DNA of 64,000 bases from Dehalococcoidia bacterium (GTDB lineage: Bacteria; Chloroflexota; Dehalococcoidia; Bin125): positions 1,610,311 through 1,674,310 of the forward strand of contig OZ241962.1 in NCBI GenBank assembly GCA_965203995.1, written 5' to 3'. The notes beneath the pieces are model-generated. The model saw nothing but the letters and a program-made list of their open reading frames with translations. It was not told the origin of the DNA and made no database searches. Every line of letters starts with the position of its first letter. Position 1 is the first letter of the stretch. The translations under genes and the position numbers were made by a program. Below are positions 18,933-52,271 of this stretch, one piece after another.

Positions 18933-18946
18933 GACCGGAGGGAACG

Positions 18947-34386: not shown

Positions 34387-36699
34387 TCATGGCTCGCTCT
34401 CGGCGGGAACGACTTCGATCCACACCTGGGCGTGAATGGTGACGGGTCGGAAGTTGCTGTCGCGCACGGCGACGGCGATCGACTGGTCGCCCGGTTCGGT
34501 CGGACAGTCGGTCTCGATCCGATCTCCGACCACGGTGGCGTCGGGATCACCGGGGAGGCTGACGTGATACGGGGCCACGCCGCCGATCGCCTTCCAGAGG
34601 AGTTGCAGGCGGTCGCCGGGCGCGCACGTGTTGCTCGGCGTCGGCGCTGCCGTCGCGAGCAACTCGACCAGCTCGGGCGGATCGTCGGTGACGACTAGGC
34701 GGACCACGGTGGTGGCGCGGTTCGGCGGGCTGGCATCATCGACGGCGCGCAGCGTGACGGTCTGCTGGCCGATCTGTTCCCGGCAACGGACTCGAGCGGT
34801 GCCCTCGCGTCCGAACCTCCCATCCAGGCCGTCGATTGTGACCACTCTTTCCAGGTCTTCGTGGTAGTCGGCGAACCAGCCGATCAGCACGGTCTCGCCG
34901 GGACGACAGTAGCCGGACAGGTGCGGGTAGGCGCGTAGGCTCAGTTCGTCGTCGCCCTCGCTGACCACGGTTTCGAAGTCGACGGCGAGCTGAGTCGACT
35001 GCGGTGGGTCGCTGTTGTCGCTCGCCTGCAGGTCGATCAATCCGGGACCTGGTTCCGCCGCACAGGAAATCACCATGCGATGCGCCGACGGATCGCGCCC
35101 GTTCAGCGTCACGGTGACGGGCGTCCAGAACCCACCGGTGACTGCCCAGTAGAGATTCAGGTGGCCGCCGCCGAGCGGCACACTCGAAGTCGTCCCGCTG
35201 CCGTCGGAGTTCAGCCACCCGTCCTCGTCGGCGGCCATAGCGATGAACACGCTGCTGGTGTCGCAGCTGATCGGGTCCGCATAGGCGGAAATCGCAAGCG
35301 GACGCAGTTGGTCGGCGTGGTCCTCGGGCAGCGCCGGCGGCTGGCCGACCGAGGCGGCGATCTGATCCAGCTTGGTGTGGATAGGGTGCGCCTCGTCTAC
35401 TGCGGGCATGATCACGCGGTCGTCGCCGCGGTACTCGCGGCCGCTGTCGACGCCGAAAGAGAGCCACGCCTCGATCTCGCCATCGCGGACGATGATCGAG
35501 AAGGTGTCTTCGCAGAAATAGGGATCCCGCTCGTAGTCCTCGTCGGTGCCCCAGCAGTGCCCATGCACATGTTCTCCGTCCTCAACACTGACGCCACCAG
35601 GGACGGTGATGACCTGTCCCGAGACCCGGTAGGTCTCGCCGCTTCGCAGAGTGGTGCTGCCCCCGACGTGCTTGATCCCGTAGGTGTGGACCACGTTGGA
35701 GGCGATTCGGCCGTCGGCGTCGATTACGGTCCCGTGGACCGAGTGCAGGCCGGAATCGCTCTGCCCGCCCAGCAGCGCTCCGCACTGGACGTGCAGCGTG
35801 CCCTCGCTCGCGCCCACCTGCTCCCCGTCGATCACGATCCGATAGGGCTTCGCGCCGCCGCTGATCTCCCAGGCCACGACGCTGGTCGAAGGCGCATAGG
35901 GCGGGCCGTTCTCCTCGCAGATCGCGGGCGCGATCATAGTCAAGCTCAGCTCGTCGGAACCGGGACCGCCGACGTTGGCGGGCAGAGCGGCGGTTGGCGC
36001 TTGTCCGATCGAGGCGATCAGTTCGTCGAGGATGTCATCAACCTGGTCGGCGCTCAGTTGGCCGAACTTCGAGACCTCGCGATTGGCCTCATCGGCGTGC
36101 CAGCGGCGGATCCAGATGTAGGGCGGCTCCGAGGCCCACCCGTCGGCGTGCAGCTGGAATCGATCGCCGCACTCCGCTAGGCCGATTGCGCAATCGGCCG
36201 ACCGGTATCCGCCGACATGGAGGTCGAACTCGTCCGGCGCGGTGAGCAGCACGCCGTGCACGCGGTAGGTGCGTCCGCGGAGGAGTGTGACGTCCGTGTA
36301 GCCTTCGACCGGGTCGGCGCGGATCACTCGAACGGCATAGACGTACGAGAGCGCACCGGCCGCAGAACCCGTGGCGTCCTCGACATGTGCCTGGATCGCC
36401 ATGATCCCGGCGTCGACCTCGTCGCCTTGCCAGACGCCGCAGACCACCGAGGCGGTGCCGCTGGCCTCCGAGTAACGCACGCCGTCAACGACCACGCGGT
36501 ACGGGGCGGAGCCGCCCTCTACCTGCCAATCCACTTCAAGGCCGGGCACGACCGCTCCGCTGTCGTAGTCGGCCTCGCAGCTCGTCGGAGTGCTGAGACT
36601 GATGGTCAGCGGTCTGGCCGATTCAGCCCCGCGCGGGAGCAGCAGGGCCAGACTCAGGATGGTTGCGACGGCGATCAGGACCGGAACGCGATGACTCAT
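34387..36699 (-). CDS. Secreted Cys-motif repeat protein, paralog L2 (770 aa), of an unrecognised four-member family.
   Basis: Signal peptide. Repeated modules carry the motifs C(E/D)xDYD, W(Q/E)V(E/S)GG.APY.V.(I/V)DG, CG.W, Y.Y.VRVIR, (T/G).YRVHG.LLT.P, C.D(R/E)FQL and PPYIW.RRW. It overlaps the downstream gene by 4 nt. Confidence 0.6.
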   Translation of the reverse strand: MSHRVPVLIAVATILSLALLLPRGAESARPLTISLSTPTSCEADYDSGAVVPGLEVDWQVEGGSAPYRVVVDGVRYSEASGTASVVCGVWQGDEVDAGIMAIQAHVEDATGSAAGALSYVYAVRVIRADPVEGYTDVTLLRGRTYRVHGVLLTAPDEFDLHVGGYRSADCAIGLAECGDRFQLHADGWASEPPYIWIRRWHADEANREVSKFGQLSADQVDDILDELIASIGQAPTAALPANVGGPGSDELSLTMIAPAICEENGPPYAPSTSVVAWEISGGAKPYRIVIDGEQVGASEGTLHVQCGALLGGQSDSGLHSVHGTVIDADGRIASNVVHTYGIKHVGGSTTLRSGETYRVSGQVITVPGGVSVEDGEHVHGHCWGTDEDYERDPYFCEDTFSIIVRDGEIEAWLSFGVDSGREYRGDDRVIMPAVDEAHPIHTKLDQIAASVGQPPALPEDHADQLRPLAISAYADPISCDTSSVFIAMAADEDGWLNSDGSGTTSSVPLGGGHLNLYWAVTGGFWTPVTVTLNGRDPSAHRMVISCAAEPGPGLIDLQASDNSDPPQSTQLAVDFETVVSEGDDELSLRAYPHLSGYCRPGETVLIGWFADYHEDLERVVTIDGLDGRFGREGTARVRCREQIGQQTVTLRAVDDASPPNRATTVVRLVVTDDPPELVELLATAAPTPSNTCAPGDRLQLLWKAIGGVAPYHVSLPGDPDATVVGDRIETDCPTEPGDQSIAVAVRDSNFRPVTIHAQVWIEVVPAESEP

Positions 36700-38780
36700 G
36701 GCGCCAACCTCTGCGGTCGCGCGGTCTGGACCCAGATGATGGCGCTGCGGGTCTCCACCTGGGGCGGGTCGGTCGCGGCGGTCACCCGGATCGTCAGCCG
36801 CTGCGGTCCGGCGACGTCGGCGCAGCGAATCTGTGTCTCGCCGGACGCGCCGAAGACGCGACGGAGACCGTCAAAGCGAACGCTGATTGGGGCCGAGCCG
36901 TTCAGCAGCGACGCGCCCCACTCGACCGTGGCTGTCTCGCCCGCTCGGCATGTCTTTGCGACACTCCACTGGTGGAAGATGTCGTTGTAGCCGTAGGTGT
37001 AATCGGCGCCGACCACATCGAGGCCCAGTTGGAAGTCGAAGTGAGCCGGTGCCGGGCCACCCTCGGTGATCCTGACCGGCGTCTGCTGGCGGCCGGGTTC
37101 GTCCTGGCAGTCGATGTAGGCGCGACCGTACTGCAGCAACTCGGGCTCGCCGTCGACCAGGAAGCTGAGCGGCCACCAGCGTCCACCCGTGGCGGACAGG
37201 AAGACATCCATGCCCCCGCCCGCTCCGCACTCGGCCTCAGGTGTGGTGTAGCTGAGCTGAACCGGACCGGACGCGTCATGGAAGTCAAGCGGCAGTTCCG
37301 GCGGCTGGTCGATCGACGCGACTAACCGGTCGAGTGCACCTATGAGCGATGCGGGCGCTTCGTCGGCGATTGTCCGTGAGTACTCGAAGCCGGTCTGATA
37401 GCCGAATTCGATCTGGGCGGCGTGTGCGCCGACTACGGCCGCGACCGTGACCCGTCGCTCACAGAACATGTCGTCGGCTTCCGGGACGGAATCAGCCGTG
37501 CAATCCGGCGCATATGCGAGGCGGGGGTCGTACCAGCTGGTCACCTCGCCCACGCCGAACTCGGCGCCCGCGGGTGGCGTCGCCAGCCAACCTCCGATGC
37601 GGTAGGTGCGGCCGGTCAGCAGCGAAGCGCCGCCGCTCGCGATCACATAGATGTCTGCCCGGGCGGAGGCAGAATCTCCAGAGGCATCGACCGCTGTCGC
37701 CTGCACAATCCGCCGCCCGGAATCCAGGCCGCGACTGTATGCGCGGTAGCAGTCGATCGTCGCGATGCCCCGGCGCCCGAGATAGCGCTCGCCGTCGATC
37801 GTCACCTCGTACGGCGCCCGACCGCCGGAGACGTTCCAGGTCAGATCGACATCTTCGTCGAACTCGCCGGCCTCGCAGATCGCGGGCGCCGAGAGCGTGA
37901 CCGCCAGGCGTCCGCTCTCCGTTCCGGCGGTTCGCACATCTCGACGGGCCGGAGGCTCCCCGAATGTGGCCAGAAACTCGTCGAACAGATCGCTGACCCA
38001 TCGTTGGTAGGAGGGGATCTCGACATCGTCGTCGTCCGCCCTGACCAAGAGCCCCGGGCGGCCGGTCGAACCGTCGAGCCAGCGCGAGTGCTCTAAGGCG
38101 CTCCAGCGCTGAATGTAGATCGACCCCTGGTAAAACCCGAATCCGTCGTTGTCAATCAGATCCAACCGAAAGCGGTCGCCGCAGGTCTCGTCGCGGACCG
38201 CGCAGCGTTCGGACAGGTACGCATGCAGTTGCATCCGGAAGCCCACCGGCACGGTCAGCAGGATGCCGTGCACGCGGTACGTCTCGCCGCCGTAGAGGTA
38301 GGCAGCGTCGCCCTGCTGACGAATCACCCGGATGCCGTAGATATCGTGCAGCGCGGAAGCCCGGCGCCCCTCGGCGTCGGTCACGCTGGCCTGGATGGTG
38401 CTGAAGCCGGAACTGATCTCTTCTCCCAGGTAGTCGACCAGGCGTCCGCACGGCGCCGCGACCACGCCGCTGCTCGTTCGGAAGTCATGGCCGTTGATCA
38501 ACACCCGGTACGGCGCGGTACCGCCCTGCACGCTCCAGGAAGCCTCAATCGTCTCAATCGGGTGGTACCGGTCAACGTCCGTCTCGCAGACATCCGGCGC
38601 CTCGATGCTGATCCGGAGAGGGCTCTCGGCGTCGGCCGCTATAGAGAGCAGCGCCAGGCTCGACCAGACCGCCAGCGCCGCCAGAACAAGCACACACGCG
38701 CCGGGATTCAGGTTGGGCAACCGCCGCAGGGTTCCAGGCATCCCGACCTCTTCAGCAGTTGGCCAACCGGCGCTGTCCAC
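36696..38780 (-). CDS. Secreted Cys-motif repeat protein, paralog L1 (694 aa).
   Basis: The same motif set (SWSVQGGTAPYRVLINGHDF..., LYGGETYRVHGILLTVP, CGDRFRLDL, YIQRWSALEHSRWLDGSTGRPGLL). Most similar to the protein at 47956-50118. Confidence 0.6.
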   Translation of the reverse strand: MDSAGWPTAEEVGMPGTLRRLPNLNPGACVLVLAALAVWSSLALLSIAADAESPLRISIEAPDVCETDVDRYHPIETIEASWSVQGGTAPYRVLINGHDFRTSSGVVAAPCGRLVDYLGEEISSGFSTIQASVTDAEGRRASALHDIYGIRVIRQQGDAAYLYGGETYRVHGILLTVPVGFRMQLHAYLSERCAVRDETCGDRFRLDLIDNDGFGFYQGSIYIQRWSALEHSRWLDGSTGRPGLLVRADDDDVEIPSYQRWVSDLFDEFLATFGEPPARRDVRTAGTESGRLAVTLSAPAICEAGEFDEDVDLTWNVSGGRAPYEVTIDGERYLGRRGIATIDCYRAYSRGLDSGRRIVQATAVDASGDSASARADIYVIASGGASLLTGRTYRIGGWLATPPAGAEFGVGEVTSWYDPRLAYAPDCTADSVPEADDMFCERRVTVAAVVGAHAAQIEFGYQTGFEYSRTIADEAPASLIGALDRLVASIDQPPELPLDFHDASGPVQLSYTTPEAECGAGGGMDVFLSATGGRWWPLSFLVDGEPELLQYGRAYIDCQDEPGRQQTPVRITEGGPAPAHFDFQLGLDVVGADYTYGYNDIFHQWSVAKTCRAGETATVEWGASLLNGSAPISVRFDGLRRVFGASGETQIRCADVAGPQRLTIRVTAATDPPQVETRSAIIWVQTARPQRLAP

Positions 38781-39167
38781 TACCGTCGTGGCGCCTGTGC
38801 GTCATTATCGCAGCGAAATTCTGAGCGCCCTGTGCGACGGCGTGTAACGCGGCGTGCAGTGTTGATGTAGTTTCCCGATCTGACGGACCGCTGCAGGATC
38901 CTCGGGCGGTTCGACGAACGGTTCAGTGCCGAACCGAAGGCTGCTGACCTGCCACAGCACCGCCACTCGGAGCGGCACCCGCAGGAAGTGATCGACAGGG
39001 GCGGACGGGGAAGCTTGGACAGCCCTCAGGTCGTCCAGGGATCGTCGTCCGTGCGGACGCGGGGACGGCAGGCGCCATGACTCGTCAGGACTCCTTGCTT
39101 GGTGATGAGGTCGCAGTGTGTGCTGACGATGGGGGCGTGGTCGAGCGTGGCGGCGCCCAGACTGCCG

Positions 39168-40808
39168 TCATTCGAACGCTCGACCGCGGCTCGACGACTG
39201 CACGGAACGCCAGGCGGGGCCGAGCGGACCCAGGCGTTCCAACATCGCGCGATCCGAGACCCGGATCGGCAACCGCTCGCGGTCGCCCCAGGGCTGCTCG
39301 CGCAGCATCCGCAGGAATCGGTCGGCGGCGAGCGGGTCGTCGAAGGCGATCAGCACCAGCGGCTGCACGCCGTGATCGTCGGTCGGCCGCTGTGTGGCGT
39401 AGTAGCGCCGGTAGGGGCCCAGCTTGGTCGTCATCGTCGAAGGCCGGATCGCTCGGCGCTCCCATTCGAGCAAGAATGGCTGGTCGCGGCCGCCTGAGCG
39501 GAGCAGGCCGAAGGCGTCGGGCTGGACCGAGTAGAGCGTGCCGTCGAGGCGGAAGTAACGCGAGGCGCGCTGGGGCGGGTCGAGCTGGACCAGTTCTCCG
39601 CTCCGCGCGCGGGCCTGCTCGGCCAGCGCGGCCAGGAACCCGTGCACCGACTCGGTGTGGGCGAGGTGGCGCAGCAGCTGCCGGGTCCGGCGGCCGCGCA
39701 GGTTGCGCCAGCCGAACGGCGCCTCGGGGTCGAGCGGTGCGGCGCTCCAACGCTTGCGCGCCTGGCCGACCGAGGCGCGGTCGCGGCGGGCGAGCAGGGC
39801 CAGGCCGCGATCGGTGAGCGCGAGCCGCCGGCGGCCCTCGATCCGCGTCGCAGTCACAAGCTCATTCCGCTCGAGTCCGGCGGTCAACTGCGAGACCCGG
39901 CGGCGGGCGACGCCGAGCAGCGCGGCCAGGTGGTCGGGCCGGATCCAGGGCCAGTCGCCGACCAGGTCGAGGGTCCGCTTCTCGGATGTCTTGAGCCGGG
40001 CCGGAAGCAGCCAGTCCGACTCGCGGATTCCCGCCTGTGCGGCCAGCGGGCGTGGCGGCTGAGACCGCCGGGGCGTCCGTTCAACCGCCCACTGACCCTG
40101 GGGCCGGACGTAGCCGAGCGCCTCCTCGAGGCTGAGTGCGGGGCCGCCCGCCGGGGAACGCCAGATCGGAGACTCGCCCGACTCGCGGGCGGCGTCGCGT
40201 TCGAGCGCGATGAAGCAGACGATCTGCGTGCTGCGGAGCAAGCGCCGGGCCTGGCGGAAGCGGACCTCGTCGGGCACGAGCAGAAGCGCGCCGGAGTAGG
40301 CCGGCCCCTCGCGCAGCCGGCCGATGCGCACGGTGAACGCGGTCCGGTCCAGGGTCGGGCCCCAGCGCACGACGGCCAGGCTGCGCCCCCCGGAGAGGGC
40401 GAAGGTGGCGTCGGCCGGCTGCGAGCGGTACCAGCGCAGCCGCGGCGGGCCGTCAACCTCGGCCAAGGCGGAGCCGAGCCGGTAGATCACGGCGACCGCG
40501 TCGATCCGCCGGAGCAAGGTCCGCCGCCACTGCTCGGAGACGGGATAGTCGCGCAGGATGTCCGCGCGGCTCCGATCCTGCTCGGCGGCCAACCGTTCGA
40601 TCCCGTCCGCCGTGAGCAGGAACCGGCGGGTCGGTCGGATCAGCTCGGAAGCGTGAGCCAGGTCCTCGACCAGGCCCGCGCGCTTGAGACCGGCGAGCCG
40701 CTGGTAGACGGCGCGCTCGGACCAATGCGAGAGGCGGGCCAGTTCGATCCGGTCGGCCAGCGGCGCCTCGGCCGCGAGGCGCAGCAGGTCGCGCTCGATC
40801 TCCCTCAT
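39168..40808 (-). CDS. Replication-relaxation (Replic_Relax) family protein with two tandem winged-helix/Replic_Relax modules, 546 aa.
   Basis: Two repeated modules of an HTH followed by a ...FLLEWERRA.../...(L/V)LIAFDD...-type core. The second (RPDHLAALLGVARRRVSQLTAGLERNELVTATRIEGRRRLALTDRGLALLARRD...PFLLEWERRAIRPSTMTTKLGPYRRYY) matches the Replic_Relax family (Pfam Replic_Relax; the accession PF13814 is quoted from memory) pattern. Confidence 0.55.
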   Translation of the reverse strand: MREIERDLLRLAAEAPLADRIELARLSHWSERAVYQRLAGLKRAGLVEDLAHASELIRPTRRFLLTADGIERLAAEQDRSRADILRDYPVSEQWRRTLLRRIDAVAVIYRLGSALAEVDGPPRLRWYRSQPADATFALSGGRSLAVVRWGPTLDRTAFTVRIGRLREGPAYSGALLLVPDEVRFRQARRLLRSTQIVCFIALERDAARESGESPIWRSPAGGPALSLEEALGYVRPQGQWAVERTPRRSQPPRPLAAQAGIRESDWLLPARLKTSEKRTLDLVGDWPWIRPDHLAALLGVARRRVSQLTAGLERNELVTATRIEGRRRLALTDRGLALLARRDRASVGQARKRWSAAPLDPEAPFGWRNLRGRRTRQLLRHLAHTESVHGFLAALAEQARARSGELVQLDPPQRASRYFRLDGTLYSVQPDAFGLLRSGGRDQPFLLEWERRAIRPSTMTTKLGPYRRYYATQRPTDDHGVQPLVLIAFDDPLAADRFLRMLREQPWGDRERLPIRVSDRAMLERLGPLGPAWRSVQSSSRGRAFE

Positions 40809-40957
40809 CTACCGGTCTCCGATCTCACCCGGATCGACCCTGCGCGGCGGAGCAAAGTGTGTCTCAGGACGCCCTCAAGCCTATCCGAACGGATATGCTG
40901 TGTAGATAACATTGGCCGCTGCCGGACACGAGTTGTCCGGGCTTCGAGAACGGAGTC

Positions 40958-42136
40958 GTGTACAAGGAAAAGGAACTGTTGGACAGTGTCCGGCAGTCGG
41001 CGGCGCCCAGTGTTTTACCGGGCGGACGCGGTTCCTGGACAGCAATCGGCAAGGAAGACGATGCGCGGGCCGGCTGCACGGGGTTTGGACAGCGGCAGGA
41101 CAACGGCGGTGACTGCCGGACAGGATTGGAGGCTTGGATGAACGGCGATGGATCGACTGAGCGGGGGGCGGGGACGGGCCCGGTGGGCGGTCCGGCGGCG
41201 GGCCCGGCGGTGACCGGGGAGGGGCAGCTCTGGGCCCTCCTACAGGACATGGTGGAGCGGGAGGGCCGGGACGCGGCGGCCGAGCGGCTCGGTCTGAGCG
41301 AGCGGACCATCCGACGCACCCTGACGGACCAGCACCTGAGCCGGCGGATGACCGAGGCGCTGCTCAAGGAGCGAAACCGGCGGCATCGTGAGCAACCGGC
41401 GGGGGCGGACGAAGACGCACAAGGGGAGCGGGAGCAACCGGAGGAGGGGGTGCAGACGGGGACCGGGGCGGTGGAAGAACTGGCTGCCCGGGTCGGCGTG
41501 CTGGAGACCGAGCTCAAGGACTGGAGCGGCTGCCTGGACCACGACCTGGAGCTGCTGGAGCAACAGCTCAGGTCCTTGGCCGGGCAGCTGGGGTTGGCCC
41601 TGAGCTCGCAAATGGGGGCGAAGTGGGAGCGCCGCCTCCCCCCGAGGATCCACCCGCAGCTGGTCACGGTTGAGCCTGCGCCCGACGACGCGGCGAACTA
41701 CCGCGAGGCTCTGCCCCTGGTCGCCGAGTGGCGGCGTACGCTGCGCGACCTGGAGGATCCCCCGCACACCCTGGCCTGGCTCAGACTGCAGGAGCGGCTG
41801 CTGGTCGTGGAAATCGAACTGCTCGACGACCACCGCCTGACCCTGCCGCCGGCCGAGCTCCCCTGGGACACGGTGCGGCGGGGCGACGAACTGCGTCTGC
41901 GCCGGCGCGAACTGGCCGACGTACGCCGGCAGCGGGCCTGGACCCAGGTCCTGCACATGCTGGCGCGCATCGCGACCGTCGGCTTGTGGGGCCGGGCGCC
42001 GAGCCTGGAGCGGCAGCTGCGGCAGGAGTTGCGGGCGCGTCAGGCGGCCGTGGTTGGCGGGCCGGACGGGGTAGACGACGGCCACGCGCCGGAGGACGGC
42101 GACAGCGCAGGACGCGGAGCGCCGACCGCGAGTTGA
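40958..42136 (+). CDS. Hypothetical protein with an HTH-like segment and a coiled coil. The start site is uncertain.
   Basis: ERLGLSERTIRRTLTDQHLSRRMTE (HTH-like), then a heptad-like region ELAARVGVLETELKDWSGCLDHDLELLEQQLRSLAGQLG. The C-terminal 70 aa or so recur as a fragment at 42830-43064. Confidence 0.35.
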   Translation: MYKEKELLDSVRQSAAPSVLPGGRGSWTAIGKEDDARAGCTGFGQRQDNGGDCRTGLEAWMNGDGSTERGAGTGPVGGPAAGPAVTGEGQLWALLQDMVEREGRDAAAERLGLSERTIRRTLTDQHLSRRMTEALLKERNRRHREQPAGADEDAQGEREQPEEGVQTGTGAVEELAARVGVLETELKDWSGCLDHDLELLEQQLRSLAGQLGLALSSQMGAKWERRLPPRIHPQLVTVEPAPDDAANYREALPLVAEWRRTLRDLEDPPHTLAWLRLQERLLVVEIELLDDHRLTLPPAELPWDTVRRGDELRLRRRELADVRRQRAWTQVLHMLARIATVGLWGRAPSLERQLRQELRARQAAVVGGPDGVDDGHAPEDGDSAGRGAPTAS

Positions 42137-42829
42137 GTCGGGCTAAGCCGGACGGCGGCCGCAGTTGCTTCGCCGCTGAGCAGGTTGAGCCTTGAACTGA
42201 ACACCGCTGCGCCCGAACCTACATCCAAGCTGCATGAACACCCGCAGGGACACACTGCTACCGCTCAATGGAATTGCCCGACAGTGGATGTGTCAGCCTC
42301 GTTTCATGGGTCCTTGGTCCTACGCCTCGGCCCGGCGGGTACCATTGCGCAGCGCAGATCGAGATCACAGCAGGACTTGGGTGCCGGCGTGCGGATCTGT
42401 GACTGTCTGCGGCGGGGATGACGCCATGAGCGAGCTGCTGGCCTGGGCCATCACGCAGACCATTCTGACGCCCTTCATCTGGCGATGGCTCCGCGAATGG
42501 CAGCAGGCCGACGATCCGCGCATGCGACGACCCCGCTGCTGCTCGGCATGGTGAAGGCGTTGGTGCTCGGCTCGTTGCTTTTCGAGTGGGTCGGCGTCGC
42601 GCTCGAGTTGGCGTGGTGACCGCCAGCGCGGGTCTCTGCGCGGACTCGGCGACAGACACAGGGAGCAGATCGCCCGGCCGGCACGCAAGTCGGCGCGACA
42701 CATCCCGGTCTGGCTGCGGGCCGAATGCCGGCGGCTGGACTTGGAGCTTTCACTGATCGGCGGCTTCGGGCTGACGCGGTCCCCGGCCGACGCGCCCTGG
42801 CGAGAACGACGGCGTGAGCATGAGCTGGG

Positions 42830-43064
42830 CTGGCGGGGACGGACGCCGCGACGGCTGCAGGTCTGGGCGGAGGTCCTACACGGGCTGGCGCGGGTCGCGA
42901 CGCTGGGGCTGAGGGGGAGGGCGCCGAGCCTCGGGCGCTCACTGCGCCAGGAGCTGCGGGCGCGGCGGGCGACGTTGGTTGGCGGGCCGGAGGACGGCCA
43001 TGCGCCGGTGCCGAGTGACGGCGCCGGGGAGGGTGCACGCGCCGTCGCGCGAGACGCGGACTGA
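42830..43064 (+). pseudogene. Fragmentary paralog of the C-terminus of the 40958-42136 gene.
   Basis: EVLHGLARVATLGLRGRAPSLGRSLRQELRARRATLVGGPEDGHAPVPSDG versus VLHMLARIATVGLWGRAPSLERQLRQELRARQAAVVGGPDGVDDGHAPEDG. About 75% nucleotide identity by eye. Confidence 0.3.
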
Positions 43065-43337: not shown

Positions 43338-45191
43338 ATGAGCGAGATCCCAACCCGAACCAGGAAGCCGGCGCGGCTGCGCAGCCTGGCCCTGCTGTTG
43401 ATCGTCCTGGCGACCGCCGCCGCGCTGCTGGCCGCGGCCTGCGGCAGCGAGCCGGACCAGCAGGTCAGCGAGCAGCCGATTCGCGCCCCGCGCCAATCGG
43501 AACAGTCGGCGGCCGCGGTCCAACAACAGCAGCAGCAACAACAGGAGGCGATGCAAGAGCAGGCGCAGCAGCAAGAGTACGAGCAGGTAGCCGAGCAGCA
43601 AGAAGCTGAGTACGCCGTTGCTGCCCAGCAGCAGGAGCAAGCGGCCCAAGCGGCGGAACAGCAACAGGCAGAGCAGGAGGCTTCGTCCGACAGCTCCCGC
43701 AGCCGCCGTCAGCAGCGTGAACAGCGATCCAGCGAAGGGCGCCAGACTCCGCCAGGCTCGCTGCCCGGCGCGACCAACTTCGAGGACTACGCCACCACCG
43801 GCTGGCGCGAGACCGTGGACGACGATACATCCACCTTCTCCCTCGACGTTGACCGCACCTCCTACTTCCTCGCCCTCAACTGGGTCGAGGCGGGCTACGC
43901 GATCGACCCGGCCTCGGTCCGGGCCGAGGAGTGGATCAACGCCTTCGACTACGGCTACGAGCTGCCCGACGCGAGCGACAGCTTCGCCGTGACGACCAAG
44001 ATCCTCCAGCACCCGCTGCACGACGGCCTGCACCTGGTCCGGATCGCCACCCAGGCGCCCGAGTTTGTCGACAACACCCCGCTCAACGTGACCCTGGTGC
44101 TGGACGCGTCCGGCTCGATGGGCGACGGGAACCGGGTCGCCATCGCCCGAGCCGCCGCCGAGTCGATCCGTCAAGGTCTAAGCCGCGACGACCGGATCGC
44201 CGTCGTCCTATTCTCCAACTCGATCGTCGATTACGAAGAGCACCAGCGCCCCAATGATCGCGACATCGAGCGGATCATCGATCGGCTGGCCCCGACCGGC
44301 GGGACCAATGTGCAGGCCGGCCTCAATCTGGGCGTGGAGTTTGCCGACGACATCCGCCGTGAGCGCCCGGACGCCTACAACTACGTGATTCTGATGTCCG
44401 ACGGCGTCGCCAACGTGGACGCCACCGACCCGTTCGCCATCCTGCGCGCGGCCGGGGACCGCGACGACTCGAACCCGCTGCGCCTGATCACCGTCGGCGT
44501 CGGCATCGCCAACTACAACGACGTGCTGCTCGAACAGCTCGCCCAGCACGGCAACGGCTGGTACCGCTACCTCCAGGACGTCGCCCAGGCCCGCTCGACG
44601 TTCAGCCGCGAGAACTGGCTGGCCCTCTCCGTCCCCTTCGCCGACCAGACCCGCGCCCAGGTGCGCTGGGACGACGACTCCGTCCTCGCCTGGCGGCTGG
44701 TCGGCTACGAGAACCGCGTCACTGCCGACCGCAACTTCGAACAGGACCGCCGCGAGTTCGCCGAGATCCCGATGGGCTCGGCCACGACCATGTTCTTCGA
44801 GGTCGAACTGACCGTGGACGCCCTGCGCCGCGAATTGATTGAACTGGGCGAGATTGAGTTGAGGTGGGTGGTCCCGATGTCGGACGAGTCCCGCAGCCAG
44901 CAGGTCGGGATGGTCAGCGGCGTGTCCCGCTTCGGCGACGACGCCATGCTCGACCTCGGATCGGTCGTCGCGCTGGCCGCCGACCGCTACAGCTGGTTCG
45001 GCCAGGACGGTCTCAGCGAAAGCACGATGAATCTCGCCGCCGAACACCTGGATGAGATTGCGTACTGGTTCGAAGAGCTGCCGCGCGACCTCCGCGACGC
45101 CCAGGCCGGCCAGGACTTGGCCAAACTACTCCTCGCCATGGGCGCTGTCGCCGGGGAGCACGAGTCCGAGGACCCCGGATACTCGCGCTGA
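43338..45191 (+). CDS. Lipoprotein with a Gln-rich linker and a von Willebrand factor type A (VWA) domain (YfbK-like, with a C-terminal DUF3520-like region).
   Basis: Lipobox LLAAACGSEP. QQQQQQQQEAMQEQAQQQ low-complexity region. VWA MIDAS block LNVTLVLDASGSMGDGNRVAIA...TNVQAGLNLG...NYVILMSDGVANVD. Confidence 0.8.
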   Translation: MSEIPTRTRKPARLRSLALLLIVLATAAALLAAACGSEPDQQVSEQPIRAPRQSEQSAAAVQQQQQQQQEAMQEQAQQQEYEQVAEQQEAEYAVAAQQQEQAAQAAEQQQAEQEASSDSSRSRRQQREQRSSEGRQTPPGSLPGATNFEDYATTGWRETVDDDTSTFSLDVDRTSYFLALNWVEAGYAIDPASVRAEEWINAFDYGYELPDASDSFAVTTKILQHPLHDGLHLVRIATQAPEFVDNTPLNVTLVLDASGSMGDGNRVAIARAAAESIRQGLSRDDRIAVVLFSNSIVDYEEHQRPNDRDIERIIDRLAPTGGTNVQAGLNLGVEFADDIRRERPDAYNYVILMSDGVANVDATDPFAILRAAGDRDDSNPLRLITVGVGIANYNDVLLEQLAQHGNGWYRYLQDVAQARSTFSRENWLALSVPFADQTRAQVRWDDDSVLAWRLVGYENRVTADRNFEQDRREFAEIPMGSATTMFFEVELTVDALRRELIELGEIELRWVVPMSDESRSQQVGMVSGVSRFGDDAMLDLGSVVALAADRYSWFGQDGLSESTMNLAAEHLDEIAYWFEELPRDLRDAQAGQDLAKLLLAMGAVAGEHESEDPGYSR

Positions 45192-45238: not shown

Positions 45239-47509
45239 ATGAATGGAACCGCCCCAATGCCGAGACCGACGATCAAAGCCGTCCGCGGCACTGTCGTGCT
45301 CCTGAATTCGCGCTCGGCGGAGAAGCTGCTGATCGGCCGCTCGGGCGACGAGTCACCGCCGGCATCCACGGGCCGGCCACGAACAACAGGTTCCGTCGAC
45401 GCTACAGACCGGGGGACCGAGACGGCGGACGCACCGCTGCGACGCTTCAGTCCGGGTTGGTCTCATCGTACGAGTGGCGGTTCCGCCACTCGCGCGTCCG
45501 CCAACTCGACGCCGTTCCGCCGCCAACGCTTGACCCGCCGCCGCTTGCTACAGGCCAGCGCCCGGGCCGGGGTGGGGATCGCCGGTCTGGCCCTCGTCGG
45601 ATGCGCCGACGATGCAGGGTCGAAGCCGTTGTCATCGGACGAGGTTCGCGCAACCGAGCCTGCCCAGCGAGCACAGCCTGCAGCGACGCAGCCCACGAAC
45701 GAGGCGCAACGGAGCAATCGATCGCGACGCCAACGGCCCTCCCCGAGCCACGCGATCGACCCGCCGCCCGTAGCGGCGCCGGTTCCGGCCCAACCGGCCG
45801 CCCGACCCGATCCGGCCACGCGGGTCACGCACCAGTTCGTGGGCGCAAACGAGGTCGACACCTGGGATCCGCATCGCGCGCGCACGACTTTCGCGCAGCG
45901 GGTGCATTCGCTGACCTATCAGAGAATCCTGCGCCCGCAGCGCTCCAGTTCACTCTGGTTGGAACCCGATCTCTGCGGACTTCCGGAGATTCTGGACCCC
46001 GTAACATTCGTCTTCCAGATCGATCCGCGTTCCCGGTTCCCATCCGACGCCGACGAGGCGGGCCGGCCGGTGACGGTCGAGGACGTGAGACGCAGCATTG
46101 AGCGGCTGGCCTGGGCCGGCCAGGTCGACGTGTTCCGGGACGCGAGGCTCCAGGCCGCCTTCGATTGGAACACGCTCGAGTTTGAGGCGATCGAGCCCTT
46201 CGACGGAACTCAGCCATTCAGATTGACGCAAGTCGCTGGTCTCAATTTCTCCCTGCTCCTCAACGGTCTGATCGCAGGGCCGTTCGCCTGGATCGCCGGC
46301 GCGGACGCGATCGATCAGGCTGACGCGCGCTGGCCCAGCGGATTGGACGGTGATCCGGTTGCCGACGGCTCGGGCCCCTACCGACTACAGAGTCACCGCG
46401 GGCGGCTGACCACCTTCGACAGATCGGAGTATTGGTCGGCCGCGCCAACTCCCGATGTCGGCTGGGGCTGGCGCGACCCGCGCCCGGCCCGCCTGGACGC
46501 CATCAAGATGTTCAGCGGCACGGCGGACGATCTGCTCCGAGGCTACGCGGCCGGGGAAATCGACCTGGCCGGCTGGCCGCTGGATGATGAGCAGGTCGCA
46601 GCCCTGTCGCAAGAGTTTCCGGAGCACAACACTTACACGATGCCCGGGCGGCGCCCGCTGCAGTTGGTCACCCCGCGCGATCTGGATCCCGCCGGCGCCC
46701 TCAGCGATCCGCGGATCGCAACAGCGATCAACTGGTCCGTGAATCGAGCCCAACTCGAGCGCTCCGAAGGCGGGCCGGTCCGGCTCAGGGCGTCCGGGCC
46801 GGTGGCGCAGCACTTCACGGAGTTGGCGCTGCCCGACGAGGAACTGCACGACTACCCGGGCTACGGGTCCGACGATAGCGCGGCCAGAGCGGCGGCGGCC
46901 GACCTGGTCGGCGCGGCCGGCGGCTCAGAGCCTGCAGCGCCGCTCAAGCTGGTTGTGCTTGAAGAGATTGAGCGCGTCCTTCCCAGGCTGGGGGACGCGG
47001 TGTTCCGGATGATCCGCGAGACGAGCGGGCTCGCGATCGAACTGGAACACGCGACGCGGACAGAAGCGCGCGGCCGGCTCGAAGGCGGCGAGCGCTTCGC
47101 CTACGTCCAGTGGGGCGAGACGCCGGAGACCCCGTTTCCGCTCCAGACTTGGCTGCGCACGCTTCACTCGGACGGCGCCGAGAACTGGGGCGCGTTCGCC
47201 AATCCCGGACTGGATCAGTTGCGGATTGACTTGCTGTCCGAGTACGACACTGAGTATGCGATGAACAAGACCGCAGGCATCCAACGAGCGTTGCTCTCCG
47301 GCTCGTTCACGGGTTGGATTCACAACCTGGCCACGCCGGTGCAGCGCGTTATCGTCCAGCCCTGGTTCAGCCCCGACGCCCGGCTGCTCGAGTTCGCCTG
47401 GTCGGATCAGCACCTGGCCGACTGCGGCATCCGCCTCAGAGGCGGAACCGGCTACCCCGCCGATCGCCGGCCGCACCGTGTCTCCAATCAGAATCAGGCG
47501 GAATCGTGA
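45239..47509 (+). CDS. Tat-secreted ABC transporter substrate-binding protein, family 5 (peptide/nickel-type)-like. The N-terminal extent is uncertain.
   Basis: Tat-like signal LTRRRLLQASARAGVGIAGLALVGCADD about 100 codons into the ORF. SBP_bac_5-like segments (...NEVDTWDPHRA...). No adjacent permease. Confidence 0.5.
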   Translation: MNGTAPMPRPTIKAVRGTVVLLNSRSAEKLLIGRSGDESPPASTGRPRTTGSVDATDRGTETADAPLRRFSPGWSHRTSGGSATRASANSTPFRRQRLTRRRLLQASARAGVGIAGLALVGCADDAGSKPLSSDEVRATEPAQRAQPAATQPTNEAQRSNRSRRQRPSPSHAIDPPPVAAPVPAQPAARPDPATRVTHQFVGANEVDTWDPHRARTTFAQRVHSLTYQRILRPQRSSSLWLEPDLCGLPEILDPVTFVFQIDPRSRFPSDADEAGRPVTVEDVRRSIERLAWAGQVDVFRDARLQAAFDWNTLEFEAIEPFDGTQPFRLTQVAGLNFSLLLNGLIAGPFAWIAGADAIDQADARWPSGLDGDPVADGSGPYRLQSHRGRLTTFDRSEYWSAAPTPDVGWGWRDPRPARLDAIKMFSGTADDLLRGYAAGEIDLAGWPLDDEQVAALSQEFPEHNTYTMPGRRPLQLVTPRDLDPAGALSDPRIATAINWSVNRAQLERSEGGPVRLRASGPVAQHFTELALPDEELHDYPGYGSDDSAARAAAADLVGAAGGSEPAAPLKLVVLEEIERVLPRLGDAVFRMIRETSGLAIELEHATRTEARGRLEGGERFAYVQWGETPETPFPLQTWLRTLHSDGAENWGAFANPGLDQLRIDLLSEYDTEYAMNKTAGIQRALLSGSFTGWIHNLATPVQRVIVQPWFSPDARLLEFAWSDQHLADCGIRLRGGTGYPADRRPHRVSNQNQAES

Positions 47510-47955: not shown

Positions 47956-50118
47956 ATGACCGACAAGCCGCCTCCCGGCGGAGCGCTGGCGTGGATCGCC
48001 CGGCGGCCAGGCAGTAGACGGAGACATAGCGTCGGCGCGCTGGTCGTGATCGGTAGCGTCCTCGCCGCCTGGCTGCTGGCCGGCTCGCTCGTCCAGTCAC
48101 AGTCGCCTCCGCTGGCGCTTACGCTGAGCGGACCGGACACCTGCGAGAACGACGCCGCCACGGACTATCTCCCAGGCGCGGTGCGTGCACCCGAGGTTGA
48201 GATCGAATGGAGCGTGAGCGGCGGAACCCCGCCCTACCAGGTGATGATTCACGGAGCCCGCCACACCGGGGCGATAGGGCGCGCCTCGGTGGTCTGCGCC
48301 GTCTGGTCGGACGAGTGGCGCTCGGCCTCGGGCGATATCGCGGTGGCGGCGACCGTCACAGACGCCGGAGGGCGCCGAGCGTCGGCGGTGCACGATATCT
48401 ACAGCATCCGTTCCTACCGCGAGATGGGCCACCAGTCGGCGGTCAACGCCGCCTACCGCACACACCGCCTGTACGGGGGCGGCACCTACCGGGTCCACGG
48501 GCGCCTGTGGACCCTCCCCGAGGACCGCCCCGTCCACATGCGCGAACACCTCTCCGCCGATTGCGCATCGCCGGGTCCCGACTGCCGCGATCGGTTTCGC
48601 CTGGAGATGTACGAGTCGAGCGGATCGGACCATAGCCAGGGCTACATCTGGATCTATCGCTGGAGCGGAACGGAGCACTCGCGGTGGCTCGACAGCTCGA
48701 TCGGGCGGCACGGCGTCCTGATCCTCGCCGACGATCCGGACGCCGTGGTTCCCGGATACGAGCGCCGCGCCAACGAAGCGTTCGACCGCTTGCTGGAGTC
48801 CCGCGGCCGGCCGCCGGACCGGCTGGTCGCGGCGGCGGCCGGCGCGCACAGCGGTCGACTCTCGATCACGTTGACCATGCCGCGGCTCTGCAGGAGCGGC
48901 TCGTTCCGCGAGGACAACGGACTGCCGGTGCGCTGGGAGGTCGAGGGCGGCGCGCCGCCCTACGACGTGACGATTGGCGGCGCTCGCTACCTGGGCCGGG
49001 AGGGGCTGCACTGGATCAAGTGCGGATTCGAGCCGGGCCGGGCGCTGGACTCGGGCGTGCGCACGCTCCAGGCGGTCGCGGTCGACAGCCGGGGAGACAG
49101 CGCGTCCGATCACGCAGACATGGTCGTCGTCCGCCGATTCTTACCCGGCCACTGGCAGGTCGAGCACCTGACAGCGGGCCGCACCTACCTGCTCGGCAAC
49201 TGGTTCGGCACGCCGCCCGCGGGCGCCCAGGTCCGCTTGGTCGCTCCGTTCTCCGAGGAGCGGTTCTGCCCGCCTGCGGATGCCGGAGGAGAGGAACGGC
49301 TCTGCGACTACGACATGCACTTCGAAATCGAGGCGGACGGCGCGATCGGGACGCTCACGCTCGGGGCGCGGGCGGGCGACGAGTACGCCCGCGCGCTGCC
49401 CGCCCGCGCCCCGCTGGCCCTGGCGCGCGCGATCGACGGGTTCGTCGCTTCGGTCGGCCGCCACCCCCGCGTCGGCGAGGACTTCCGCGACGCATCGGCT
49501 GAGCCTCGGTTTCGCTGGCTGGCCGACCCCGGCGAATGCTCGCCCGGCGGATCGGTGCGGGTCCACGTGCGGGCGACGGGAGGCCAGTGGTGGCCGCTCT
49601 CGACGATCGAGCTAGGCGACCAGGAGGTACGCCTGCAGAACAGCGCGCGGGGCGACTCGGCATCGTTCTGGGTGAACTGCGGCGACGCGGCGCGGCCCTT
49701 GGAGTTGGAGCTCCGGGCGACGGAACTGCGCTTCTCGCCGTTTGAGCGGGTAACCACGGTCGCCGAGTCGAAGGTCCTCATCGGCGCGCGAGGTGCGGAC
49801 CAGGACCCGCACGACAACGACATCTACACCCAGGTTGATCTCGGCATGGAGCACGGCGTGTGCGTCGCTGGGGAACCGTTTCCACTCGAGTGGCAGGTGC
49901 GTCCCGCTCGCGGCCAGGAGGGCCGTATCAGCGTGACGATTGACGGGGTTGTCGGCGTTCACGGCGGCCTGGACGCCGTGCAGTTGCGCTGCGCCGAGCC
50001 GCCCGGACCGCACCGCATCACGCTGCGGGTCCGGGCGGAGTTCGACACGCCGCAGTTTGAGACGTTGGACATCGTCTATGAGTCGGTCACGGGACGACCG
50101 GAGCGGAGGCCGCGATGA
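47956..50118 (+). CDS. Secreted Cys-motif repeat protein, paralog R1 (720 aa).
   Basis: EWSVSGGTPPYQVMIHGARH..., ATVTDAGGRRASAVHDIYSIR, LYGGGTYRVHGRLWTLP, CRDRFRLEM, YIWIYRWSGTEHSRWLDSSIGRHGVL. Ortholog-like to 36696-38780. It overlaps the next gene by 4 nt. Confidence 0.6.
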   Translation: MTDKPPPGGALAWIARRPGSRRRHSVGALVVIGSVLAAWLLAGSLVQSQSPPLALTLSGPDTCENDAATDYLPGAVRAPEVEIEWSVSGGTPPYQVMIHGARHTGAIGRASVVCAVWSDEWRSASGDIAVAATVTDAGGRRASAVHDIYSIRSYREMGHQSAVNAAYRTHRLYGGGTYRVHGRLWTLPEDRPVHMREHLSADCASPGPDCRDRFRLEMYESSGSDHSQGYIWIYRWSGTEHSRWLDSSIGRHGVLILADDPDAVVPGYERRANEAFDRLLESRGRPPDRLVAAAAGAHSGRLSITLTMPRLCRSGSFREDNGLPVRWEVEGGAPPYDVTIGGARYLGREGLHWIKCGFEPGRALDSGVRTLQAVAVDSRGDSASDHADMVVVRRFLPGHWQVEHLTAGRTYLLGNWFGTPPAGAQVRLVAPFSEERFCPPADAGGEERLCDYDMHFEIEADGAIGTLTLGARAGDEYARALPARAPLALARAIDGFVASVGRHPRVGEDFRDASAEPRFRWLADPGECSPGGSVRVHVRATGGQWWPLSTIELGDQEVRLQNSARGDSASFWVNCGDAARPLELELRATELRFSPFERVTTVAESKVLIGARGADQDPHDNDIYTQVDLGMEHGVCVAGEPFPLEWQVRPARGQEGRISVTIDGVVGVHGGLDAVQLRCAEPPGPHRITLRVRAEFDTPQFETLDIVYESVTGRPERRPR

Positions 50119-52271
50119 GCGCCAAGTTCCCGCGCCGTTGGCTGTGGACCGTTCTCGGGGGCGGCGGCGCGTTGGTGCTGCTTCTGTTCGTCCCGCAGGC
50201 CGGCGGCCAGGAGCCGCTCACGCTTACGCTCACTGCGCCGGCGGGCTGTGAAGCCGACTATGACGAACGGGAGATCGCCCGCAACGTCGACCTGCAGTGG
50301 CAGGTCAGCGGAGGTCAGGAGCCGTTTTCTGTCGCCATTGACGGCGTTGCGTACACGGGTGAGCGGGGCCTGGCGCAGACCATCTGCGGCATCTGGGACG
50401 AGACCGATCCGTCCCTCGTCGACTCGGGGCTGATGAGCTTCAACGCCCAGGTGCGGGACGCCCGCGGCGAGCAGGCGACCGCCGTCGCCTACACCTACGC
50501 CGTCCGGGTGATCCGCGCCGACGGCCGTCCCAACGACTACCCGGTCGGCCTCAACGCGGGGCGAACCTACCGGGTGCACGGGATGCTCTTGACGATGCCC
50601 GAGGAGTTCGGCCTGATCATGGGCCCCTATCACAGCGCTGCCTGCGCCGATCCCGTAAACGCCGATGCATGCGCTGATGAGTTCCAACTCCGCGCGGGCA
50701 GGTGGTCCGATCAGCCGCCCTACATCTGGCTGCGGCGCTGGAGCCGGGACGAGGCGCGCCGGGCGCTGGCTCCGCTGCACGAGTATTCCGCCGACGAGGT
50801 CGCCGACTATTTCGATCGACTGGTCGCGTCGATCGGGCGGCCGCCGCCCCCGGTCCCCGGAGCGACCAGCATCGGCGAGGACTCCAGCGATCTGCGGATC
50901 GAGCTCTTCGCTCCCCGGATCTGCGAGGCGTACTGGGGTCGTTACGGCGGGACCCGGCAGTCGATCCCGGTCGAGTGGCGCGTGAGCGGCGGCGCGGCGC
51001 CCTACCAGGTCGAGATCGGCGGCGAGCGCTTCAAGGGCGAGTCAGGTGAGATCTCCGTGGCTTGCGGGCGCGCGAGCACGGATCGCACCGGCGTCGACTC
51101 CCAGCTCATGGCGGTTCAGGCGAGCGTCACCGACGCCCGCGGCGGCCGGGCGTCGGGCGTGGTCAACACCTACGTCATCGCAGCAAGAAGATTCGGGGAC
51201 GACCGCCTGCGCGCCGGCTGGACGCACCGGGTCCAGGGTCTGCTCATGACGATCCCAGAAGGGCTGCAGTTCGACGTTGAGTACTTCGGCTCGACGCTGG
51301 TCGATTGCGAACCCGACGAGCCGGAAGAGGAGGCGGAACCTGAGTCCGGCCTGGACGCGGGCGGCGCCGTCCTGGCCCAGAGCGGACTGCCGCCCGCCGA
51401 CCGCGAGAGCGACCGCTACCGCTGCCAGAACTTCTGGTCGATGAGCGGCGAATGGATGATCGCCGGTCACCGGGGCAGCGTCTGGGTCGGATTCGGCGAA
51501 ACGACCAACGATGTCTCCGACTACGGCGTGGAACTGGACGACGGATCGGCCGGTCGCGCCGGCGCCGAGCAGGCGCTGCAGGAGGCGGAGCGCCGCGTCT
51601 GGCGGTTGGCCCACTCGGTGGGCAAGCCGCCGGAGCTGCCCGAGGCCGGGAACTTCAACCCAGCCCCGCTGCGCATTCGCGCCTGGGCGGAACCGCTGGC
51701 CTGCGGCTGGCTGCACGAAGGCCACCGCCGGAGACAGGCGAGCGCGCAGCGCCGGGTGAGCGGCGGAGCCTGGTGGCCGCTCGGCATCGGAGACGAAGCC
51801 TGGTCGAGCACGCATCGCCACGCCAACCTGGACTGTCCGGCGACGCTCGGGCCGCACCAATCGGTGCTTGAGACCCACGAAAGTGGTCCCGATCCCGCAA
51901 CGGTCGAAGCGACCGTCACGCACTACGCCGTGCCGGTGGTCGCCTCAGGCGACCTCAGCGGCTCCGGTCAAGGTTGGCCGACCAGCTACTGCAGGCCCGG
52001 CGGCGAGCGGAGTATCAGGTGGAGCGTGAGCGGCGGCTCGGGCGCCTACCGGGCGCGGGTGAGCGGCGCCGATGTCGACATGGAGTACCACCCGGAACTT
52101 GGCTATGGAGACGGATGGGCCCAGGTCAGATGCACGAACCGCCTGGGCCTCCAGGCGATGACGGTCGCGGTCTGGGTCGAGGCCGAACCCGGCAACCGGC
52201 TCGTCTTTCCCGTCTTGTTGATGGCGGTCGAAGAGCATCCCTCTGGACGGCCGTGGTCGGACTTCGAGTGA
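50115..52271 (+). CDS. Secreted Cys-motif repeat protein, paralog R2 (718 aa).
   Basis: CEADYDEREIARNVDLQWQVSGGQEPFSVAIDGVAYTGERG..., YTYAVRVIRADG, GRTYRVHGMLLTMPEEF, CADEFQLRAGRWSDQPPYIWLRRW. Most similar to 34387-36699. Confidence 0.6.
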   Translation: MSAKFPRRWLWTVLGGGGALVLLLFVPQAGGQEPLTLTLTAPAGCEADYDEREIARNVDLQWQVSGGQEPFSVAIDGVAYTGERGLAQTICGIWDETDPSLVDSGLMSFNAQVRDARGEQATAVAYTYAVRVIRADGRPNDYPVGLNAGRTYRVHGMLLTMPEEFGLIMGPYHSAACADPVNADACADEFQLRAGRWSDQPPYIWLRRWSRDEARRALAPLHEYSADEVADYFDRLVASIGRPPPPVPGATSIGEDSSDLRIELFAPRICEAYWGRYGGTRQSIPVEWRVSGGAAPYQVEIGGERFKGESGEISVACGRASTDRTGVDSQLMAVQASVTDARGGRASGVVNTYVIAARRFGDDRLRAGWTHRVQGLLMTIPEGLQFDVEYFGSTLVDCEPDEPEEEAEPESGLDAGGAVLAQSGLPPADRESDRYRCQNFWSMSGEWMIAGHRGSVWVGFGETTNDVSDYGVELDDGSAGRAGAEQALQEAERRVWRLAHSVGKPPELPEAGNFNPAPLRIRAWAEPLACGWLHEGHRRRQASAQRRVSGGAWWPLGIGDEAWSSTHRHANLDCPATLGPHQSVLETHESGPDPATVEATVTHYAVPVVASGDLSGSGQGWPTSYCRPGGERSIRWSVSGGSGAYRARVSGADVDMEYHPELGYGDGWAQVRCTNRLGLQAMTVAVWVEAEPGNRLVFPVLLMAVEEHPSGRPWSDFE

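Follow-up and report, generated by a model that had tools for sequence, protein, structure and literature searches.

Sponge symbionts are uncultivated, and their persistence in the host has been explained mainly by counts of known eukaryote-like and adhesion domains. Metagenome-assembled genomes (MAGs) from sponges are enriched in cadherin and fn3 adhesion genes (PMC8163846) and in restriction-modification (RM) systems and mobile elements (PMC8163846; PMC5649159), and peptidoglycan genes are missing from the SAR202 genomes of sponges (PMC6306507). Exported proteins with several immunoglobulin (Ig)-like domains are an already known kind. We describe here a family of such proteins that is invisible to domain counts because it contains no Pfam domain, yet is expanded, apparently exported, under purifying selection and found in one major symbiont lineage. 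The family is represented by two two-gene operons, the left pair (L2 and L1) and the right pair (R1 and R2), in a 64-kb stretch of the genome of a Dehalococcoidia bacterium (contig OZ241962.1; the whole stretch is referred to as the window). An earlier note on this DNA had proposed either a lineage-specific cell-surface system or a larger selfish or invertible unit. The cell-surface system fits best, and with a probability of about 0.55 we take the members of the two-gene family to form a non-enzymatic complex of an upstream (A) and a downstream (B) protein at the cell surface, serving adhesion or recognition, possibly in a wall-less symbiont lineage.

The two pairs point outwards from a 9.2-kb core (Table 1). 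Four open reading frames (ORFs) joined two and two by 4-nt overlaps had been described at this position, and we find them there, both junctions reading ATGA. The public gene call for L2 starts at M14 (nt 38741) and gives a protein of 681 aa. All four frames are intact, and the ratios of nonsynonymous to synonymous substitution (dN/dS) against the closest orthologues are 0.28 for L2, 0.29 for L1, 0.26 for R1 and 0.21 for R2. This purifying selection, together with the intact frames, rules out a pseudogene among the four genes. By BLASTP the two upstream proteins L2 and R1 share 38% amino acid identity (E 1e-140) and the two downstream proteins L1 and R2 share 33% (E 1e-109), compared with 28-31% between upstream and downstream proteins (paralogue E-values overall 1e-50 to 1e-141), so that the pairs do correspond ortholog to ortholog, as had been proposed. 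Promoter and terminator scans of both arms gave nothing, the consensus used fitting the GC content and the phylum poorly, and Rfam and tRNA scans of the window gave no match. The upstream regions of the two operons have no element in common; only about 128 nt by the start is kept with L003 (three-digit L-numbers denote loci of relatives in other genomes).

The domain architecture was derived from an alignment of the four proteins with eight database homologues, from an alignment of module 1 with module 2, and from hidden Markov models (HMMs) of the parts. The repeated module consists of an Ig/PKD-like beta-sandwich of about 90 aa, the last strand of which leads directly into a domain of about 120 aa, designated X, that ends in a helix (about 210-250 aa in all). 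The earlier note had reported a shared module of about 250 aa occurring two to three times per protein. The motifs on which it relied do recur in modules 1 and 2, but the full Ig+X module is present exactly twice in each protein, and the apparent third copy is an Ig half only; two further Ig-like domains follow the modules in L2, R1 and R2, and three in L1. R2 ends in a conserved tail, HPSGxxWSxFE, and its second X domain carries an acidic Cys-bracketed loop of 38 residues. All four proteins are acidic. BLAST and HMM searches found no Ig or X domain of this family in the other ORFs of the window.

An alignment of 88 X domains was used to examine conservation and structure. The conserved parts of X are an N-terminal hairpin (GxTYRVxGxLxTxP) and a C-terminal helix (LDxLxASxGxPP, or in shorter form ASxGxxP). 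The middle is variable and contains a Cys-bracketed loop in 59 of the 88 domains, mostly of 4-38 residues (one outlier has 0), and the alignment holds no invariant His, Asp, Ser or Cys of the type associated with catalysis. A model of X alone built on this alignment was confident (predicted local distance difference test score, pLDDT, 91.5; predicted template-modelling score, pTM, 0.82) and shows a sheet of 5-6 strands with two helices. The structural check that had been suggested for a repeat module was carried out on X, and no neighbour was found among solved or viral structures: a Foldseek search of the BFVD viral structures returned nothing at E <= 1e-3, and among the cap-binding domains known from polymerases of segmented negative-strand RNA viruses (PB2/L protein), that of PB2 reached template-modelling (TM) scores of 0.3-0.4, so that the modelled likeness of X to PB2 would at most be one of shared topology. 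For the Ig part, structural superposition on solved PKD/Ig domains identifies a PKD/Ig-like beta-sandwich at the fold level.

Sequence searches gave a similar picture. Searches of Pfam, NCBIfam, PADLOC and PDB sequences with the four proteins yielded nothing above threshold, and X matched neither a curated family nor a solved structure, by sequence or by fold. The best Pfam score was that of BiPBP_C (PF06832), with 14.2 bits against a gathering score of 26.8 (E 0.042) and confined to L1 residues 273-336; tested on isolated Ig domains, this model matched one of 34 (E 0.055). Pfam scans of the 34 Ig domains produced scattered sub-threshold matches to SprB, Big_1, BiPBP_C, Cadherin and HYR, the Cadherin HMM (PF00028) matching a single domain (E 0.094), and in scans of the 88 single X domains no family was matched by more than one member. 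PDB profile searches returned nothing for X and, for the C-terminal Ig domains, protocadherins at E 0.035-0.32, which is not significant. These Ig domains do have an end motif, A.D..(D/S)PP......V.V.V.D.PP, in common with protocadherin repeats, which explains the NCBI label 'cadherin repeat domain-containing protein' on some members. The Ca2+ linker DxNDNxP is absent, its place being taken by VTDDPPE in the B-long type, QTARPQ and VTGRPE in the A types, and VEEHPSG in the B-short type. PADLOC assigned no family to the four proteins, to the neighbouring exported protein u532, to the VWA or substrate-binding proteins (SBPs) of the core or to the 707-aa protein u707, and a known defence system was rejected. 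These searches support the statement that the Ig+X family is unrecognised by the libraries used, in agreement with the earlier note, which could not assign the module to any domain. That note had set two findings against its own proposal, a confident match to a known domain and degeneration into pseudogenes; neither was obtained. Four features are new as far as the searched libraries show, namely the X domain, the module that it forms with the Ig domain, the conserved coupling of A to B and the confinement of the family to sponge-type Dehalococcoidia.

We examined the four proteins for features of export. Each has a positively charged N-terminal region followed by a single hydrophobic segment, with no other transmembrane segment in a Kyte-Doolittle scan, as for Sec export, and the segment is kept in homologues. 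The mature parts contain 14 Cys in L1 and 12 each in L2, R1 and R2, which is exactly two per domain, and no column other than those of the two Cys is invariant across the 34 Ig domains. The secretion that had been predicted is supported by the N-terminal segment and by the Cys count, and the Cys residues, which the earlier note had recommended for checking, occur in pairs, consistent with disulfides. Two Cys per domain in combination with a lone N-terminal hydrophobic segment indicate that the four proteins are exported and that their disulfides would form outside the cytoplasm.

A neighbour-joining tree separated three old clades, A, B-long and B-short, such that the left pair consists of A and B-long and the right pair of A and B-short. 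An A gene lies directly upstream of a B gene in all five loci with called genes, with a 4-nt overlap in L001, L003, L005 and L017 and a 2-nt gap in L002. The left pair is present in L003, at 87% (L2) and 78% (L1) amino acid identity, as part of a collinear 8.7-kb block (window 34129-42835; 80-85% nucleotide identity) that includes the Replic_Relax and helix-turn-helix (HTH) genes of the core. L003 has no VWA gene, SBP gene or right pair, and both of its flanks differ from those of the window. The right pair has orthologues in L013 (67% for R1, 71% for R2), and the MAG bin125 (MPNM01), which comes from the sponge Aplysina aerophoba (PMC5649159), carries the right pair alone (67% and 71%), with 74% nucleotide identity over 48035-52274 and no shared flanks. 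L001 and L017 share one chromosomal location of the pair, with ECH on one side and DinB/luciferase/phoBR/pst on the other, a DUF499/DUF1156 cassette having apparently been inserted on the ECH side in L001; an integrase and a transposase lie near the pair in L005. Pairs frequently have genes for further exported proteins or for giant surface proteins next to them. Since orthologous pairs occur singly and without the VWA/SBP core, we conclude from these gene neighbourhoods that the conserved unit is the two-gene operon and that having two pairs flank this core is peculiar to the present genome.

The family extends well beyond the pairs. An exhaustive HMM search recovered 537 cluster representatives with E <= 1e-3, of which 252 reached <= 1e-10 and 64 reached <= 1e-30. 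A word-indexed protein search found nine close relatives and, with the X alignment, only three matches, which were uninformative. Many members are proteins of about 300 aa with a transmembrane anchor, a low-complexity linker, one Ig+X module and no Pfam domain; some of about 1270 aa combine an N-terminal module with fn3, and giants of 1000-2500 aa (with fn3 in those scanned) share the C-terminal Ig type alone. Single-module genes form tandem arrays, with eight paralogues in L006 and at least five in L015; in L017 they lie directly upstream of the pair on the same strand, and in L018 one overlaps a 1121-aa Ig-rich gene. The arrays of 5-8 Ig+X paralogues of about 230-330 aa (L006 8001-16105, L015 7900-13800) adjoin genes of 758-930 aa with faint fn3. 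Along the L006 array the closest match of successive paralogues switches, in loose alternation, between the module-2-like and the module-1-like kind. A hint from these gene orders is that the two-module proteins perhaps arose by fusion of neighbouring single-module genes.

With regard to distribution, all ten loci found in contigs representing one genome per species belong to Dehalococcoidia/Chloroflexota MAGs, and all named cluster members are Chloroflexota, which fits the lineage-specific reading. A scan of JGI metagenomes detected only two loci, one of them identical in sequence to bin125. No relative was found among the IMG/VR viral contigs, and a phage origin was ruled out on this basis and on the lack of a structural match in BFVD.

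In the proposed A/B surface complex, A and then B would be co-translated through the ATGA coupling in a ratio of roughly 1:1, exported by means of an N-terminal signal or signal-anchor, and folded outside the cytoplasm into a disulfide-locked chain of domains. The two would assemble as a hetero-complex on the outward-facing side of the membrane, localisation and complex both being predictions. This complex would act as a binding or structural element rather than as an enzyme, with the variable X loops presumably setting its specificity, and may serve adhesion to, or recognition of, the matrix of the host, other cells or giant surface proteins acting as partners, or else form part of a proteinaceous coat. 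The literature on sponge symbionts cited above is consistent with a surface role. A more far-reaching version, which we consider doubtful, is that Ig+X represents a new superfamily and fold confined to sponge-associated Dehalococcoidia, that pairs and single-module arrays together make up the exposed surface of a wall-less symbiont, and that the X loops decide recognition by the sponge, be it in attachment or in escape from phagocytosis; if true, this would define a class of symbiosis factors distinct from the known eukaryote-like repeat proteins.

Several points weigh against the proposal of an adhesive surface complex. The export signal was judged from hydrophobicity alone, either a cleaved signal or an anchor being compatible with it, and none of the four proteins has a C-terminal anchor. 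The possibly wall-less envelope is an extrapolation from sponge SAR202 relatives. The full-length AlphaFold2 model of L1 (pLDDT 81.6, pTM 0.79) was built on a 12-sequence alignment, and the structures compared with X were solved and viral ones, so that neighbours among predicted structures are possible. A sponge source is confirmed for bin125 only; for most of the MAGs it is presumed from isolate names, among which SB0664 and RHO1-3 resemble those of sponge MAG series. The bin125 orthologues do not occur in the supplements of two A. aerophoba omics studies (PMC6081418, PMC12879404). Several pair loci also sit among defence or mobile genes, where other roles are possible.

This last point bears on two alternatives that invoke mobility. 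The earlier note regarded the two arms as a diverged inverted duplication and raised the possibility of one invertible or selfish unit. In such a unit, recombination between the inverted arms would flip the 9-kb core, or all 18 kb would move together. The similarity of the proteins and the inverted geometry are real, with homologous pairs 9.2 kb apart, a Replic_Relax gene in the core and a recombinase-bounded defence island adjoining the region; the duplication itself gives way to two pairs from different old subfamilies with no usable DNA repeats. The arms are only 33-38% identical in amino acid sequence, the DNA patches found by blastn (25-365 nt at 65-96%) include none that is both long and near-identical, and the inverted repeats in a repeat scan measure 27-86 nt at 71-83% (the longest 86 nt at 71%, the best 63 nt at 83%). 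Such similarity is too short and diverged to support homologous inversion. No recombinase lies between positions 32 and 58 kb in the window, the nearest being the serine recombinase 19 kb from the left arm (Table 1), and the linkage is not conserved, L003 having the left pair with Replic_Relax and HTH in the absence of VWA, SBP and right pair, and bin125 the right pair only. We give almost no credence to an invertible or selfish unit. It is also quite unlikely, in our estimate, that the pairs are cargo of integrative elements or defence islands and act in surface exclusion of phages or conjugation, for instance by masking receptors. The conservation of the 8.7-kb left-pair block in L003 between differing flanks would suit such cargo, as would the related serine recombinase that lies beyond variable defence genes in both genomes (type I RM and a DUF4011 helicase-nuclease in the window; McrBC, RES and insertion sequence (IS) genes in L003) and the presence of DUF499/DUF1156 or of integrase and transposase by the pairs of L001 and L005. 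However, the pair genes have a GC content of 0.67-0.71 and 0.1-0.6% Lys, as in resident-looking genes, compared with 0.61 and 2.8-5.4% for the compositionally foreign RM, helicase and recombinase genes adjacent to them; the pair keeps the same housekeeping synteny in L001 and L017, and defence genes look inserted in one of these only; and neither a PADLOC match nor an IMG/VR relative was found. In addition, genomes of sponge symbionts commonly carry many RM systems and mobile elements (PMC5649159), so proximity to such genes is expected. A mobile-island association keeps a small residual probability for the left copy, which travels with Replic_Relax and HTH beside a recombinase-bounded, variable defence region in two related genomes.

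The other alternatives accept a location outside the cell and differ in function. The proteins might constitute the principal lattice or envelope of a cell that has no wall, similar to a surface layer, and be structural rather than adhesive. The lack of peptidoglycan genes in sponge SAR202 genomes (PMC6306507), the acidic multi-Ig composition, the coupling of two subunits and the pTM of the full-length model, which suggests rigid packing between domains, all speak for a lattice. A principal envelope protein is, on the other hand, hard to reconcile with a genome that holds two divergent pairs, with the arrays of single-module paralogues, with a very rare and patchy family (nine close matches, two JGI metagenome loci) and with the relatively high dN/dS, and we regard it as unlikely. 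An accessory role in extracellular substrate capture or nutrient uptake, directed at glycans or dissolved organic matter together with the nearby binding proteins, appears highly improbable, since those neighbours are not conserved by orthologous pairs, no catalytic domain or carbohydrate-binding module is present, and the pair is not coupled to any gene for a transporter.

Table 1. Positions in the window of the four genes, their domains and other genes discussed (SP, N-terminal signal segment).
Feature	Position	Strand	Length or score	Description
L2	36696..38780	minus	longest ORF 694 aa	left pair, upstream, A type; SP-Ig-X-Ig-X-Ig-Ig
L2 domains	Ig 38343-38624, X 37947-38348, Ig 37650-37913, X 37296-37658, Ig 37011-37268, Ig 36729-36989	minus		
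L1	34387..36699	minus	770 aa	left pair, downstream, B-long type; SP-Ig-X-Ig-X-Ig-Ig-Ig
L1 domains	Ig 36337-36615, X 35992-36345, Ig 35686-35958, X 35332-35694, Ig 34966-35304, Ig 34687-34950, Ig 34408-34665	minus		
L2/L1 overlap	36696..36699	minus		ATGA start/stop overlap, translational coupling
R1	47956..50118	plus	720 aa	right pair, upstream, A type; SP-Ig-X-Ig-X-Ig-Ig
R1 domains	Ig 48106-48399, X 48391-48819, Ig 48853-49119, X 49114-49470, Ig 49498-49770, Ig 49849-50085	plus		
R2	50115..52271	plus	718 aa	right pair, downstream, B-short type; SP-Ig-X-Ig-X-Ig-Ig
R2 domains	Ig 50211-50492, X 50487-50849, Ig 50886-51167, X 51162-51635, Ig 51663-51929, Ig 51948-52229	plus		
R1/R2 overlap	50115..50118	plus		ATGA start/stop overlap, translational coupling
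Replic_Relax gene	39168-40808	minus	33.3 bits (cutoff 25.3)	core
HTH gene	40958-42136	plus		core, divergent from Replic_Relax
VWA lipoprotein gene	43338-45191	plus		core; VWA/vWF_A/YfbK_C (YfbK-like)
SBP_bac_5-like lipoprotein gene	45239-47509	plus	33.6 (cutoff 32.4), marginal	core; Tat signal
u532	32400-33998	minus	532 aa	exported, no family; downstream of L1, same strand
Large serine recombinase	13627-15306	minus		defence island
Type I RM hsdM/S/R	16368-25040			defence island
Helicase-nuclease	27974-32056			DUF4011/AAA_11/AAA_12/MTES_1575; defence island

The core holds the Replic_Relax regulator, VWA lipoprotein and family-5 SBP that had been reported, the last with a marginal SBP_bac_5 score, and an HTH gene in addition. 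The Replic_Relax and HTH genes are linked to a pair in L003 and in no other genome examined, and the VWA and SBP genes, being absent beside orthologous pairs elsewhere, are mere neighbours. A functional link of the pairs to this core was ruled out because its genes are not conserved by the orthologues. Part of the 3' region of the HTH gene is duplicated about 0.9 kb downstream (41924-42066 and 42849-42991, 143 nt at 77%); a similar second fragment of the HTH homologue is found at L003 2683-2976, and the block conserved between L003 and the window ends at just this point (about 42835 in the window). Between its Replic_Relax and A genes, L003 carries a gene for a secreted RCC1-repeat protein, a eukaryote-like beta-propeller (6575-7450), that is absent from the window.

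Downstream of the left pair, u532 has a homologue (36% over 507 aa; L019 9662-11281, minus strand) that adjoins the right-pair orthologue in bin125. It is possibly a third partner that accompanies pairs of two lineages. The block u532-L1-L2 is bracketed by a 59-nt direct repeat (32254-32312 and 39089-39147, 73%), the copies of which end on the minus strand in AAGGAGTC and encode a similar short peptide, DHAP[FI]VS[ST]H; the repeat may be fortuitous, or reflect a leader common to both sites or what is left of a gene.

Further surface-type genes are found on both sides of the pairs. Beyond R2, 52782-54905 (707 aa, u707) and 55175-58135 (986 aa) encode paralogous proteins with a transmembrane anchor. 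Their N-termini are near-identical (116 nt at 91%, 52824-52939 and 55259-55374), and they share a C-terminal region of about 250 aa with a cadherin-like segment and an EF-hand/dockerin-like motif, DxDxNGKIDxSEY, the longer protein also having fn3. On the other side, positions 6260-9577 encode a 1105-aa exported subtilase with P-domain, fn3, He_PIG and Ig-like domains; S8/Calx-beta giants similar to it flank the pair in L002 and L008.

The segment 13627-32056 is a compositionally foreign defence island (GC about 0.61, Lys 2.8-5.4%). The equivalent position in L003 contains IS genes, McrBC and a RES toxin, followed by a related serine recombinase (77% nucleotide identity), and the region has the look of a hotspot that is associated with a recombinase and has exchanged its cargo. 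Low Lys was rejected as a special feature of the pairs, because all resident-looking or exported proteins of the window are Lys-poor (0.1-1.5% Lys; Arg 4-16%), compared with the normal Lys of the defence genes, which were presumably acquired horizontally. For this genome, Lys content thus offers an easy way of recognising foreign DNA by its composition.

The family, a plausible symbiosis factor, offers a concrete candidate for work on the symbiont surface and on interaction with the host, and adds an apparently undescribed small domain. If its role is only structural, it would still put a name to another part of metagenomic dark matter, without establishing a new principle.

Comparison with known systems places the Ig part nearest to bacterial PKD/Ig-like domains, such as the PKD domains of an archaeal M14 peptidase (4xed) and of ColH (4u7k) and the BiPBP_C, SprB, HYR and Big_1 families. 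From these the family differs in scoring below all Pfam gathering thresholds, in the invariant Cys pair of each domain and in the strand that runs on into X. Cadherin repeats resemble it as extracellular tandem sandwiches and in the C-terminal end motif of the protocadherins, but have neither paired Cys nor an X domain, and the family for its part has no DxNDNxP linker. In the D-region of type IV pilins, a disulfide-bracketed variable loop is set on a conserved scaffold and could carry specificity. X likewise combines a conserved scaffold with a variable Cys-bracketed loop, although this is an analogy only: the fold is unrelated, the pilin N-terminal helix and prepilin signal are lacking, and the Cys pair is missing in about one third of X domains. 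The eukaryote-like and adhesion proteins of sponge symbionts are built of ANK, TPR, LRR, WD40, fn3 or cadherin repeats, none of which are the building blocks of the Ig+X family, which has its own X domain and for which no eukaryotic counterpart was found. With these proteins it shares the niche and the proposed role in host association or attachment, and like them it is expanded, restricted in lineage and located beside RM systems and mobile elements.

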